From a bacterium (GTDB taxonomy: Bacteria; Bacteroidota; Ignavibacteria; Kapaibacteriales; UBA2268), in NCBI GenBank assembly GCA_024711295.1, contig JANJTB010000002.1, positions 145,804 to 209,803 on the forward strand: DNA of 64,000 nucleotides, given 5' to 3'. This document shows, piece after piece, positions 8,599 through 12,608 of the stretch (positions are counted from its first letter, which is position 1; each line of letters begins with the position of its first letter). The position numbers were made by a program, and so were the translations under genes. Below the pieces are notes generated by a model. That model ran no database searches. It was not told the DNA's origin and saw only the letters and a program-made list of their open reading frames with translations.

Positions 8599-9432
8599 AT
8601 GAAAAAACTTACAATATTAACATTGCTGATAATAATGCTTACCCAGTTTGATTTGCTTTCGCAGGTAGGGATTTATCCACAGGCAGTTTTCTTGAATCAG
8701 AAAAATAGGGCAAGTAATCTTAAAGTACTAAATATGACTAATGAAACAAAAGAAATAATTCTTGACCTAAAGTTTGGATATCCTGATTATGACTCTCTGG
8801 GCAACTATTCTCTGGTTTACGGCGACACATTGCCCGGCGCTAAGTGGTCGGCTGTACCCTTTGTCAGAATGTTTCCCAAAAGATTACTTCTCAAGGCAAA
8901 TGAGGAACAAGTTGTTAAGTTCATGTTAGGCAATATGGGGAATGTACCTGATGGTACTTATTTTGGAAGAATCCATGTTCTTTCAAAAAATCCACCTGAA
9001 GAAATTGATACAACCTATACAGAATCAATTACAGCAAAAATTGACATACATTTTACACTTATTTCTGCATTGATTGTTGACAAAGGCAAAACTTACTGTG
9101 ATATAAGTGTTAAGCCGATGGGAACATTCTCAGATTCAAACATGGTCAATTTCTTAGTGAATGTAAATAAAGATGGTAATGCTCCATTTTTGGGTACAAC
9201 TGAAATGAAAGTATATGATTCTATGGGTAAACTTGTGGCACAAAGCAAGGACTTAACACCGTTCTATTTTAGTGGTACAAGATCTTTCAGATTCGATAAG
9301 AAATTATTTTCGAATGGTCGTTACAACGTCGAGCTTACAATGTCAAACGAGCACAAGGACGTTCCTGACGATTTCAAAGTAGCAATTAAGCCTGTAAAAG
9401 AAACATTCTCTGTTGATTTAGATGGTATATGA
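8599..9432 (+). CDS. Periplasmic PapD-like fimbrial chaperone candidate
   Basis: Signal peptide present. The mature N-terminus 'GIYPQAVFLNQKNRASNLKVLNMTNETKEIILDL' follows the 'I.P.r.if.......sl.v.N' pattern of pilus chaperones. At 277 aa the size is typical. The assignment rests on motif memory only. Confidence 0.4.
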   Translation: MKKLTILTLLIIMLTQFDLLSQVGIYPQAVFLNQKNRASNLKVLNMTNETKEIILDLKFGYPDYDSLGNYSLVYGDTLPGAKWSAVPFVRMFPKRLLLKANEEQVVKFMLGNMGNVPDGTYFGRIHVLSKNPPEEIDTTYTESITAKIDIHFTLISALIVDKGKTYCDISVKPMGTFSDSNMVNFLVNVNKDGNAPFLGTTEMKVYDSMGKLVAQSKDLTPFYFSGTRSFRFDKKLFSNGRYNVELTMSNEHKDVPDDFKVAIKPVKETFSVDLDGI

Positions 9433-12400
9433 TGAAAAAAATGGGCAGATATATTATACTTCTGCCTTATATTGTTTTGTTAAGTTACCATTTGGTTACT
9501 GCAGAACCAAGAGAAGAGGCAATCTTTGGATTAGTACATAACAAATACTCATCCGAGTTTGTGGTTTTTATGCAAAATGATACCGTATTTGTACCATTCG
9601 ATGAGGTATTATCATTCTTCAAAATATACTACAACGTAAACGAACAACGTAAATATCAAGGTTATATCAATAACGCCGACAGCTCATTTTCGATAGATTT
9701 CGCAACAAAAGAGATTCAAGATATAAATGGTTCTAAACTAACTCTCAAAGATGACTCATGGTTTGCTACTGATTTGCAAATCTTTGTCAAAACAGATTTA
9801 TTTGCTGATATATTTAAACTGAAATTCAAGACTATTTTCAATAGTTTATCTATTATTGTACAATCAGATTATGAATTACCATTTCTAAAATCCATTCGTG
9901 CAAACAAACAAATGGAGAATTTTACAGCAAAAACAAAACAGGACTATAATTTCCCGTTATTATCATCAAGCTCGTTTACATTATTAAATGGTGGGGTGCT
10001 TGATTATAATTTCGGAACATCTCAAACAAGTAATTACAGCAGTTACAATTTTTCTGGAAATGTAGGCCTGGAGCTATTAAATGGAGAATTACAATACAAT
10101 TTCTTTGGTAGGCAATACTCATCAAGTTTGAATTATCAGGACAGGGTAAGATGGAGATATTTTGTGAATGAAGATTGGTTGCAGTCAATTATGATAGGCA
10201 ACATACAAAATATGTCAATCAGAAACACAGGTAGCAGAGGATTCAGAAGACCCTTTTTCAATTTGAGAGGAATACAAATAACAAATGAAAATTATAAAAT
10301 GCCAAATGTATTTACTGATTATATAGTTGAGGATGTTGTTGAACCCGATTGGACAGTGGAATTGTATTTAGCAGATCAGCTATATGATGTAATAAGAGCC
10401 GACCTTAACGGGTATTATCGCTTCGAAATTCCAATAACCTACGGTATGACAAACATCAAGGTTAAAATTTACGGTACTAAAGGTGAATTTATAACTGAAG
10501 AAAAAATATTGAATATTCCAAATCAGATGCTTGTACCCGGAGAGTTAAAATATTCAATATCCGCCGGTAGAGATGATATAAGTGGAAGGGAACTTATAGA
10601 GGGAACGTTAAACACAGGCATTTTCGACTGGCTTTCAACATCAGTTACCGGCATTAAAGAGGAATTCACAAATTCGGTTTACCTCATTAATCAATCATCA
10701 GTAAATTTATTCGACAATACACTTCTTAATCTAACTTTAACAAGCCAGGGAGTGTACGAAGCAGGTATTAAACTTCCAGCCAATAAAACTGGAAATTTTG
10801 AATTATACTACACATATTTCGATAGTAATGTCAAAAAACAAAGCCAGCTTAGTTCCATAAACTTTATTTCTTCATTTAACATTGCAGGTAAGATACCACT
10901 TTCTTTTTCTATTTATGGTTCTAGGGATGTTTTTTCGGAATGGAGTACCAATAATTTTTACTCAACACTGAACTTTTTTTATAACTCGTTAAATTTTTCG
11001 ATACGTCACAACTTATCAATGAAAGACAGAAATTTTGTATTCGACAATATCAATCAAAACCTTAACCTTAATGTTACATACTCAATAAGTGATATGCCAA
11101 ACTTTTTAAGTTTCTTAAACAGAGTATCACTCAACACAACCACCTATTTCGATTTGAATAAGTTAGGAATTTCTTCAATTTCAACGGGATGTCAGATACA
11201 AGTAACAAGAAATCTTTCAATCAACAGTAATTACAATTACTATCTTAATAATAACTCTTCAAATTTCAGGTTGGGAGTCAACCTGAATACTCAGTCTCTT
11301 CGAAGCAATTCATCAGCTGATTTTAGTGATGCGAGAGATGTTATTATTACCAGTGATGTTAGCGGTTCGTTAGAATTTGACTCACAAAACTTAAGATTTG
11401 CACTTATAAACTCGATGGGATCATCAAATATGCATGGCAAAAGCTCCATAGCAGTTAAATTCTTTGTTGACGGTAATTATAACGGAGTTTTAGATGAATA
11501 CGAAGAATTAATTCCTGATGCAGATTTTGTGATACTTGATGCATTACCAAAGAAAACAAAGTTAGACAACTATTACATCGTAACTGACCTGATGCCAGGA
11601 ACGAAGTACAATTTCAGAGTAAAGACTGAATCATTGCCTTCCAACACCTTAATACCTCTTATCACAGAATTTGCATTAATGTCGAAACCCTATTCTTATG
11701 AATCTGTTAATATTCCTTGCCAGCAGGGAGGTGCAGTGGAAGGAACTGTAAATAGAATTGCTGAGTCAAAATCAAATGGTCAAGGCGGTATTAGAGTTCA
11801 TATCTTAGGTATTGATAAGGATTATACTACAAATGTTCTTGCGTTCTCTGATGGGTCGTTCTTTTATGACGGACTTCTACCAGGTAAATACAAGGCTTAT
11901 GTTGATTCAACACAATTACGTATACTGAATGTAAACTCAAAACCACCTTTTATAGATTTTGAAATTGAGGCTTCCGACTCAGGTAATTTCATCAGTAATC
12001 TGAACTTTGAACTTATCAAAAGCATTGATAAATTTCAGCCGGTTGAATTATATGACGGCAACTTGTTAGCATCGGATGATAAGATAACCTCAAAAAATAA
12101 GAATAAAACAAATTTTGGTAACCGGGAATTTCAGAACTTAAGTGAGAAAGAAAAAACTGATGAAGATGCAGATGTAACTTCAGACTTGATTGAAAATGAT
12201 GCAGTTAAGTCAATTACATCAATTCCTGCTGTTGGAATAGAAACCACCCCAATAAATGAAGAAATCAAATTAGGAAAGTTAGGACCAATTTTCTACCAAA
12301 AGCCAAAAAACACATTTCTGGCATCCGGAATGAAGAAATACCTGGACAAAATCTCTGATTTTTTACGAAATAATTCTAAATTAAATATTCTAATCGAAGG

Positions 12401-12608
12401 TCATTCCGATAATGTTGGTTCAATTGATGAAAATTACAACTTATCCCGACTCAGAGCTCAGGAAGTAACTAACTATCTATTATTAAAAGGGATAGGCAAA
12501 GACAGGATTAAAACGAATGCTTATGGTTCCCTTAAACCATTTATAAATAATACAGGTAAAACCGATAAAAGTAAAAATATGAGGGTAGAGCTGATGATTA
12601 CAGAGTAA
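9429..12608 (+). CDS. Usher-like outer-membrane protein (1059 aa) with a CarbopepD_reg-like beta-sandwich and a C-terminal OmpA peptidoglycan-binding domain
   Basis: Signal peptide present. A long N/S/Y/F-rich barrel region carries the usher-like segment 'RGIQITNENYKMPNVF...TVELY'. 'GAVEGTV...DGSFFYDGLLPGKYKAYV' is a CarbopepD_reg-like domain. The C-terminal 'NILIEGHSDNVGS...NLSRLRAQEV' is an OmpA_C domain. The start overlaps the stop of the chaperone-like gene (ATGA). Confidence 0.5.
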   Translation: MMKKMGRYIILLPYIVLLSYHLVTAEPREEAIFGLVHNKYSSEFVVFMQNDTVFVPFDEVLSFFKIYYNVNEQRKYQGYINNADSSFSIDFATKEIQDINGSKLTLKDDSWFATDLQIFVKTDLFADIFKLKFKTIFNSLSIIVQSDYELPFLKSIRANKQMENFTAKTKQDYNFPLLSSSSFTLLNGGVLDYNFGTSQTSNYSSYNFSGNVGLELLNGELQYNFFGRQYSSSLNYQDRVRWRYFVNEDWLQSIMIGNIQNMSIRNTGSRGFRRPFFNLRGIQITNENYKMPNVFTDYIVEDVVEPDWTVELYLADQLYDVIRADLNGYYRFEIPITYGMTNIKVKIYGTKGEFITEEKILNIPNQMLVPGELKYSISAGRDDISGRELIEGTLNTGIFDWLSTSVTGIKEEFTNSVYLINQSSVNLFDNTLLNLTLTSQGVYEAGIKLPANKTGNFELYYTYFDSNVKKQSQLSSINFISSFNIAGKIPLSFSIYGSRDVFSEWSTNNFYSTLNFFYNSLNFSIRHNLSMKDRNFVFDNINQNLNLNVTYSISDMPNFLSFLNRVSLNTTTYFDLNKLGISSISTGCQIQVTRNLSINSNYNYYLNNNSSNFRLGVNLNTQSLRSNSSADFSDARDVIITSDVSGSLEFDSQNLRFALINSMGSSNMHGKSSIAVKFFVDGNYNGVLDEYEELIPDADFVILDALPKKTKLDNYYIVTDLMPGTKYNFRVKTESLPSNTLIPLITEFALMSKPYSYESVNIPCQQGGAVEGTVNRIAESKSNGQGGIRVHILGIDKDYTTNVLAFSDGSFFYDGLLPGKYKAYVDSTQLRILNVNSKPPFIDFEIEASDSGNFISNLNFELIKSIDKFQPVELYDGNLLASDDKITSKNKNKTNFGNREFQNLSEKEKTDEDADVTSDLIENDAVKSITSIPAVGIETTPINEEIKLGKLGPIFYQKPKNTFLASGMKKYLDKISDFLRNNSKLNILIEGHSDNVGSIDENYNLSRLRAQEVTNYLLLKGIGKDRIKTNAYGSLKPFINNTGKTDKSKNMRVELMITE

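Follow-up and report, generated by a model that had tools for sequence, protein, structure and literature searches.

Chaperone-usher pili are textbook adhesins of proteobacteria and are targets for drugs, and the usher by which they are assembled is usually viewed as a free-standing machine of the outer membrane. The topology of the usher is known from the structures of PapC and FimD, which have a barrel of 24 strands with a plug domain placed between strands 6 and 7. Bacteroidota are thought to use a different pilus type (type V). The archaic (sigma) systems, such as Acinetobacter Csu, Pseudomonas CupE and Myxococcus Mcu, have the widest phylogenetic spread of the chaperone-usher classes; an account from 2015 places them in proteobacteria, Cyanobacteria and Deinococcus-Thermus, with Bacteroidota unmentioned (PMC4654587). 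Here we analyzed a 64,000-nucleotide stretch of DNA, referred to as the window, from a bacterium of the Kapaibacteriales (contig JANJTB010000002.1, positions 145,804 to 209,803). Positions 6539-12608 of the window probably constitute a single operon for a deeply divergent chaperone-usher-type system of surface-fibre assembly, the fibre function being assigned by analogy with the described systems. The last gene of this operon (9429-12608, forward strand) has an ATG start and encodes a secreted protein of 1059 amino acids, exactly at the coordinates given in an earlier reading of this DNA made without database searches (the sequence-only reading). Profile comparison, the predicted fold and a Pfam match to OmpA point to an usher that ends in an anchor for peptidoglycan.

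The usher character of the protein is not apparent from the standard sequence libraries. None of the Pfam models Usher (PF00577), PapC_N and PapC_C is matched by the protein or by any of 22 homologues (E ≤ 0.01), there is no match to the NCBIfam usher models, and OmpA is all that Pfam and NCBIfam return. Comparison of the family with FimD alone by hhalign gave a probability of 0.8%, which is statistically worthless, even though the correct region was aligned, the pairs LLNGGVLDYNF/GLLNYNF, LRGIQIT/FRGAQL and KYSISAG/RYSITAG being brought together. Because this single-sequence comparison was of no statistical use, a profile of classical ushers was needed, and nine sequences from E. coli K-12 and plasmids were used for it (FimD, Caf1A, MrkC, PefC, FedC, an Afa-operon usher and others). 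Against this profile the family aligned with a probability of 98.7% and an E-value of 3.9e-16 over 504 columns. The alignment runs from residue 189 to residue 738 of the query and from 182 to 769 of FimD, covers the barrel, the plug and the first C-terminal domain (CTD1), and places plug upon plug.

The predicted structure served as an independent means of assignment. The AlphaFold (AF2) models in this analysis were built from alignments of 21-22 sequences; that of the usher, built from 22, has a mean predicted local distance difference test score (pLDDT) of 77.7 and a predicted template modelling score (pTM) of 0.51. It contains 24 barrel strands (6 + 18), an insert of six strands after strand 6, and two C-terminal sandwiches. 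When the model was compared with known structures by Foldseek, the top 18 matches were all usher chains (E 4.8e-32 to 1.6e-14), and the best match to anything else came at 1.6e-7; identity with ushers in these structural alignments was 11-17%. As a control, the family was compared by hhalign with the TonB-dependent receptor encoded in the window, and only a stretch of 56 amino acids was aligned, in which the CarboxypepD_reg domain of the receptor lies against residues 767-828 of the large protein. Pfam finds no match to Plug, TonB_dep_Rec, LptD or Omp85 in the large protein. An identity as a TonB-dependent receptor or a TamB-like protein was rejected, since both hhalign and Foldseek assign the N-terminal part of about 870 residues to the ushers. 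The agreement of two independent methods, one based on sequence profiles and the other on predicted structure, indicates that the resemblance to ushers is not an artefact. The usher-like barrel proposed in the sequence-only reading is thus borne out by profile-profile comparison and predicted fold, though sequence libraries fail to detect it, and we regard the large protein as a very divergent homologue of the FimD/PapC ushers on the strength of these two comparisons. A chance open reading frame was rejected as an explanation; so was a gene fusion or assembly artefact, because a single reading frame with an OmpA tail recurs in many independent genomes.

The model supports the following domain organization, with all features on the forward strand. 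A predicted signal peptide (residues 1-25; 9429-9503), hydrophobic and ending in LVTA before EP, with a helix at residues 7-18 of the model, is followed by a beta-rich and presumably periplasmic N-terminal domain (residues 29-146; 9513-9866) that is modelled with a pLDDT of 80-90. Barrel strands 1-6, as defined by DSSP on the model, occupy residues 186-285 (9984-10283), the hhalign alignments to ushers beginning at residues 186-189. The plug-like beta-sandwich (residues 294-363; 10308-10517), which hhalign places onto the plug region of FimD, is inserted between strands 6 and 7, with its six strands lying between those at residues 278-285 and 373-382. Strands 7-24 extend over residues 373-651 (10545-11381). 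Beyond the barrel, the model has a beta-sandwich at the position of CTD1 (residues 672-751; 11442-11681), which the hhalign alignment covers as far as residue 738 (FimD 769), and a second one, CarboxypepD_reg/SdrD_B-like, at the position of the second C-terminal domain, CTD2 (residues 757-864; 11697-12020). A disordered acidic linker (residues 867-943; 12027-12257) leads to the OmpA-like peptidoglycan-binding domain (residues 948-1058; 12270-12602).

These domains differ in how readily they are recognized. The plug region is the most conserved in the family, with 13 of 17 invariant alignment columns falling within residues 281-380. For the N-terminal domain, which is outside the range covered by hhalign, the best Pfam match is Cu_amine_oxidN1 at an E-value of 0.11; the Foldseek alignment of the model with full-length FimD has 926 columns. 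The first C-terminal sandwich has a weak fn3 match (E 7.6e-5). The sequence-only reading had described the second as a CarbopepD_reg-like domain. Residues 757-866 match CarboxypepD_reg (PF13620) below threshold, with an E-value of 0.1 and a score of 13.4 bits where 32.3 would be required, while 13 of 22 homologues match it at the equivalent position (E ≤ 0.01), the best with 31.9 bits, still below the cut-off; SdrD_B (PF17210) is matched at the CTD2 position by 14 of the 22. The second sandwich is therefore CarboxypepD_reg-like and not a member of PF13620; the earlier description is confirmed in part, and the place of the domain is that of the usher CTD2. The acidic low-complexity linker that had been described is real: it contains 16 Asp or Glu and 9 Lys or Arg residues, for a net charge of -7, and is the sole long stretch of the model with a pLDDT below 50. 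Its length, however, is 77 residues rather than the approximately 90 first given.

The OmpA domain is recognized directly. Residues 969-1050 match PF00691 with an E-value of 1.2e-16 and 61.3 bits against a cut-off of 27.2, and the isolated tail reaches 65.2 bits, so the C-terminal OmpA motif of the sequence-only reading does score. Matches to the C-terminal domains of Pal, OmpA and MotB are also found in NCBIfam and the PDB. When the domain is aligned with OmpA and Pal of E. coli and with four homologues, two residues prove invariant, the Asp in GH[ST]D and the Arg in ..RA... We take these to be the residues that contact the diaminopimelate of peptidoglycan, as in the structures of Acinetobacter baumannii OmpA and of Pal. 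The domain is predicted to bind peptidoglycan. Neither OmpA nor SPOR is matched by any of the nine classical ushers (0/9), in agreement with the earlier statement that classical ushers have no OmpA anchor.

We examined the tails of 80 complete homologues, running Pfam on the tails only. Fourteen of the 80 stop no more than 25 residues past the second sandwich, like classical ushers, and 66 have tails of 59-597 amino acids. A peptidoglycan-binding tail detectable by Pfam is present in 46 of the 80 (SPOR in 33, OmpA in 12, LysM in one), always after CTD2. Locally iterated, more sensitive models raise these numbers to 45 for SPOR, in one to four repeats, and 13 for OmpA, all located after approximately residue 880. 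Because iterated models can drift, the counts obtained with Pfam should be taken as the more cautious ones. OmpA and SPOR occur in tandem in four homologues (L044, L059, L060, L093), others have four SPOR repeats (L046, L053, L062), and the tails reach 597 residues. Among 146 representatives, 74 have SPOR, 26 have OmpA, 20 have another tail and 26 are short. In a crude neighbour-joining tree of the cores, the OmpA-only proteins, this one included, form a single clade of Ignavibacteria and Kapabacteria; the Bacteroidales region of the tree is filled by SPOR types, and the forms without a tail are dispersed. The occurrence of three unrelated peptidoglycan-binding folds (OmpA, SPOR and LysM) at one position argues that the tether itself has been selected. 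Judged by these domain matches, the wall anchor is a trait of the family that is realized by interchangeable modules.

The family is large. A word-indexed search recovered 22 full-length relatives; those with OmpA tails are from Kapabacteria and Ignavibacteria and share 28-99% identity, whereas those at 23-26% identity carry SPOR instead, the named ones being from Bacteroidales. Among named relatives, those closest to the operon are from Kapabacteria. A HMMER search of 1.84 billion cluster representatives with a usher-core profile returned 12,312 sequences with E ≤ 1e-3, of which 2,871 had E ≤ 1e-30. When one genome from each GTDB species was scanned with a nine-sequence subset of the alignment as the query, a relative was found in at least 581 species-level genomes. 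The best 80 of these at least 581 are almost all metagenome-assembled genomes (MAGs) of Bacteroidales, Lentimicrobiaceae, Rikenellaceae, Prolixibacteraceae, Saprospiraceae, Ignavibacteria and Kapaibacterium; MAG labels of Desulfobulbaceae, Hyphomicrobiales, Chloroflexota and Acetivibrio probably reflect mis-binning. Relatives are named "OmpA family protein", "SPOR domain-containing protein" or "hypothetical" in the databases, and cluster names are uninformative. By these searches the family is unannotated and goes unrecognized by current usher, chaperone and pilin models. Two loci are of separate note. A contig of 1670 bp binned as "Paludibacter sp." (L016, JANJXE010000533.1) is 100% identical to residues 1-332 of the window's usher and has, before the usher, a reading frame that matches the chaperone profile; the bin label is probably wrong, or else the window derives from the sample in question. 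A MAG labelled Chloroflexota (L025) has two tandem pairs of a chaperone and a short usher (902-3526 and 6992-9655), with ushers of 875 and 888 amino acids that lack a wall-binding tail, and no subunit gene was detected there by the subunit profiles.

The gene order around the usher is likewise that of a chaperone-usher system. The usher gene is the 3'-most member of a subunit-chaperone-usher operon, preceded by five genes on the same strand. Loci of the relatives contain two to five small proteins, many of them with DUF4402, then a protein of 273-286 amino acids and then the large protein. Local searches with hidden Markov models found this order (subunit or subunits, chaperone, an optional extra subunit, usher) in most of 80 genome loci, and the same synteny is seen in L002-L005; there are four to seven paralogous subunits per operon.

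The gene immediately upstream (8599-9432, forward strand), whose end with the stop codon overlaps the start of the usher gene by 4 nt, encodes a secreted protein of 277 amino acids with two beta domains. In the predicted structure both domains are Ig-like, and their arrangement is that of pilus chaperones. PapD_N and PapD_C are not matched, Pfam giving two weak sub-threshold matches (CHU_C and Por_Secre_tail); a profile search of the PDB gave no match, and hhalign comparisons with FimC and with seven classical chaperones (2.9%) were both non-significant. The motif YPQAVFL has Gln at the position of the Arg that precedes "xVF/IY" in classical chaperones. Because the sequence comparisons are not significant, the assignment relies on predicted fold and synteny, which make this protein a candidate for a PapD-fold periplasmic chaperone.

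Four small proteins are encoded upstream of the chaperone candidate, all on the forward strand. Subunit 1 (148 amino acids; 6539-6985) is predicted to be a secreted, pilin-like protein related to DUF4402; its reading frame as called from 6434 is probably over-extended and the start is at 6539, the database containing a version of 148 amino acids that is 100% identical (P0198). Alignment identifies subunit 2 (169 amino acids; 7014-7523) and subunit 3 (162 amino acids; 7557-8045) as its paralogues and subunit 4 (149 amino acids; 8100-8549) as a divergent member, with an orthologue at the equivalent position in L002 (6663-7112). All four are paralogous and have a signal peptide and a conserved C-terminal Y..L. 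Subunits 1-3 share an N-terminal segment NP[VI]...A.VI.P[LF], and subunit 4 lacks the approximately 12 residues that follow the NP[VI] motif; it may be the tip or initiator subunit, which would be incorporated first and have no donor strand. None of the four matches a Pfam model, and there is no hit to DUF4402 (PF14352) even at E ≤ 10; PDB searches returned noise only, and a subunit profile search found only close hypothetical proteins of Kapabacteria. When the set of paralogues was compared by hhalign with DUF4402-bearing proteins from the same operon position, a probability of 95.3% and an E-value of 2e-8 were obtained, and by this comparison the subunits are related to DUF4402 proteins.

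The operon is bounded on one flank by a tRNA-His gene and an HD-domain gene and on the other by a convergent phosphofructokinase gene. The tRNA-His (GTG; 6000-6073, reverse strand) lies within the 560 nt that separate the HD-domain gene from the gene for subunit 1. A scan for promoters and terminators gave no more sites than shuffled controls. Between the phosphofructokinase gene and a deaminase gene is a reading frame of 333 amino acids (14010-15011, reverse strand) without a significant Pfam match. Elsewhere in the window, a 712-residue outer-membrane beta-barrel (OMP_b-brl_2; 56518-58656, forward strand) carries two OmpA domains, so that the window has two outer-membrane proteins with a wall anchor. 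Among the weak matches of the search for relatives there were also TonB-dependent receptors that have an OmpA tail (P0023-P0025); OmpA domains are thus fused to several outer-membrane proteins in this lineage. The preceding gene (51995-56500, forward strand) encodes a protein of 1501 amino acids with HYDIN/ASH/PapD-like Ig repeats and a C-terminal type IX secretion (T9SS) sorting domain, and Por_Secre_tail is also found on reading frames at 528-2645 and 25462-27504, both on the reverse strand, which fits an organism of the Bacteroidota/Ignavibacteriota type. Giant Ig/PKD/SprB proteins are encoded directly upstream of the DUF4402-chaperone-usher genes at three other loci, of the Bacteroidales type (L001, 1-7422; L003, 611-4570; L004, 1-5547). 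Those of L003 and L004 have T9SS sorting domains. The adjacency of the genes may reflect a link between the two surface systems or be coincidental.

A mechanism can be proposed by analogy with the FimD/PapC paradigm. The four DUF4402-like subunits, exported by Sec, would be captured in the periplasm by the 277-residue PapD-fold chaperone, which would hold them by donor-strand complementation and bring them to the usher's periplasmic domains. There, donor-strand exchange would polymerize the subunits, with export through the 24-strand barrel once the plug has swung out. An even number of barrel strands leaves the C-terminus of the usher in the periplasm, and the OmpA domain would therefore be able to bind peptidoglycan non-covalently; the flexible linker of 77 residues would let it reach the peptidoglycan without hindering the C-terminal domains. 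The most likely role of such a tether would be to immobilize the pore, so that tension on the fibre is passed to the cell wall and not to the outer membrane. In the relatives with SPOR, the tails may in addition localize the pore to particular regions of the wall or to denuded glycan. Donor-strand assembly and the formation of a fibre are both carried over from the paradigm, and both would apply here only as far as the analogy does.

Three other explanations of the locus were considered. It is unlikely, though the least so of the three, that an usher-derived machine exports DUF4402-type proteins and that these yield an amorphous layer (coat, capsule or matrix) rather than a pilus, the anchor then serving to stabilize a busy pore. 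The subunits are DUF4402-like and not recognizable pilins, the presence of four to seven paralogues in an operon would be in keeping with a layer of composite make-up, and several of the Bacteroidales loci adjoin giant Ig/PKD/T9SS surface proteins; the Caf1 capsule and the spore coat protein U (SCPU) of Myxococcus are precedents for coats secreted by a chaperone-usher route. Nevertheless, the Tyr motif conserved at the C-terminus and the N-terminal segment that three subunits have and the fourth lacks resemble the donor-strand logic of fibres, and since the known coat and capsule products are still donor-strand polymers, a coat would be a variant of the proposed fibre system. Much less probable is that the large protein mainly serves to tie the outer membrane to the peptidoglycan, or acts as a porin; it would then be an envelope stabilizer of the OmpA type with a barrel that merely happens to be usher-like, and its neighbours would be functionally unrelated to it. 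The abundance of OmpA domains on outer-membrane proteins here and the bare database label of "OmpA family protein" could be read in this manner, but it is the plug and not the anchor that is most conserved, 14 of 80 relatives have no anchor and yet keep the usher core, and the chaperone-like and subunit genes stay linked to it across distant taxa, with the 4-nt overlap in the window itself. Least probable of all is that the resemblance to ushers arises from modelling or alignment and that the barrel is of another kind, for example a TonB-dependent receptor, LptD or an Omp85-like protein. The failure of every curated usher model, the 0.8% obtained with FimD alone and the pTM of 0.51 would fit such an error; the profile comparison (E 3.9e-16 over 504 columns) and the structure search, which has ushers alone at the top by wide margins, independently agree, and the receptor control and the Pfam searches gave nothing for these other barrels beyond the CarboxypepD_reg stretch of 56 residues. 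All three explanations are weaker than assembly of a fibre by a chaperone-usher system.

A potential concern is the number of results that weigh against this chaperone-usher interpretation. No component of the operon matches the usher, PapD or fimbrial models of Pfam and NCBIfam, and searches of the PDB by sequence and by profile with the usher family returned OmpA domains only. The structural evidence is an AF2 model with a pTM of 0.51, derived from a shallow alignment of 22 sequences, and the Pfam scan gives no PapC_N signal in the N-terminal domain. At the level of the subunits, an hhalign comparison of the DUF4402-type proteins with FimA/I/F/G reached a non-significant 1.7%, with the C-terminal strand alone aligned, and an incomplete Ig fold completed by a donor strand would be expected of the subunits by analogy with the fibre systems. 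As for the anchor, its absence from 14 of 80 relatives indicates that it is dispensable for the machine.

Set beside the classical ushers (FimD, PapC, Caf1A; PF00577), the protein is predicted to share the 24-strand barrel, the plug after strand 6 and the two C-terminal sandwiches, and may share a periplasmic N-terminal domain; it is encoded, as they are, beside a two-domain chaperone and small secreted subunits. It differs from them in an N-terminal domain that is unrecognizable by sequence, in a last sandwich that is CarboxypepD_reg-like, in the linker and OmpA anchor, and in the occurrence of its family in Bacteroidota and Ignavibacteriota. With the archaic systems and their SCPU subunits it shares the presence of several small paralogous subunits of about 150-180 amino acids; no wall-binding tail on the CsuD or CupE ushers is described in the literature searched. 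The N-termini of DUF4402 proteins may resemble those of SCPU. DUF4402 itself is matched, in distant homologous operons, by the proteins that take the place of the subunits, whereas the four proteins of the window reach no Pfam threshold. The anchor has its counterparts in wall-anchored machines such as Pal, OmpA, MotB, TssL/TagL of the type VI secretion system, PorE of the T9SS and DotK of Dot/Icm, with which it shares the OmpA_C fold, the conserved Asp and Arg and the fixing to peptidoglycan; PorE likewise pairs a CarboxypepD_reg-type domain with OmpA_C, as judged by an NCBIfam match. Unlike in Pal, MotB, PorE and the others, the anchor here is fused straight onto a putative chaperone-usher pore of the outer membrane.

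Our search of the literature found no described usher with an OmpA-like or SPOR domain, consistent with the earlier view that a peptidoglycan tether on an usher would be an unusual architecture, and found nothing relevant on chaperone-usher systems in Bacteroidota/Bacteroidetes or on DUF4402/PF14352. The machine is recognizably of the chaperone-usher kind; as far as was checked, its occurrence in this phylum, the family to which its subunits belong and its anchor to peptidoglycan all appear to be new for such systems. The family could represent a fourth deep chaperone-usher clade, of Bacteroidota and Ignavibacteriota, with DUF4402-type fibres and with ushers ancestrally coupled to the wall by OmpA, SPOR or LysM. 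We consider the case for such a clade to be evenly balanced.

If this is correct, fibre assembly in these bacteria would be load-bearing on the peptidoglycan, and the SPOR versions may target septal or remodelled wall. Recurrent wall modules would challenge the picture of the usher as a free-standing machine, and DUF4402 would gain a function that can be tested. Since the family is invisible to current models, inventories of surface fibres in gut, sediment and wastewater Bacteroidales and in Ignavibacteria are probably incomplete. The tail-less variants and those with OmpA, with one to four SPOR repeats or with OmpA plus SPOR would together constitute a natural experiment on how anchoring relates to fibre assembly, the bearing of force and localization.

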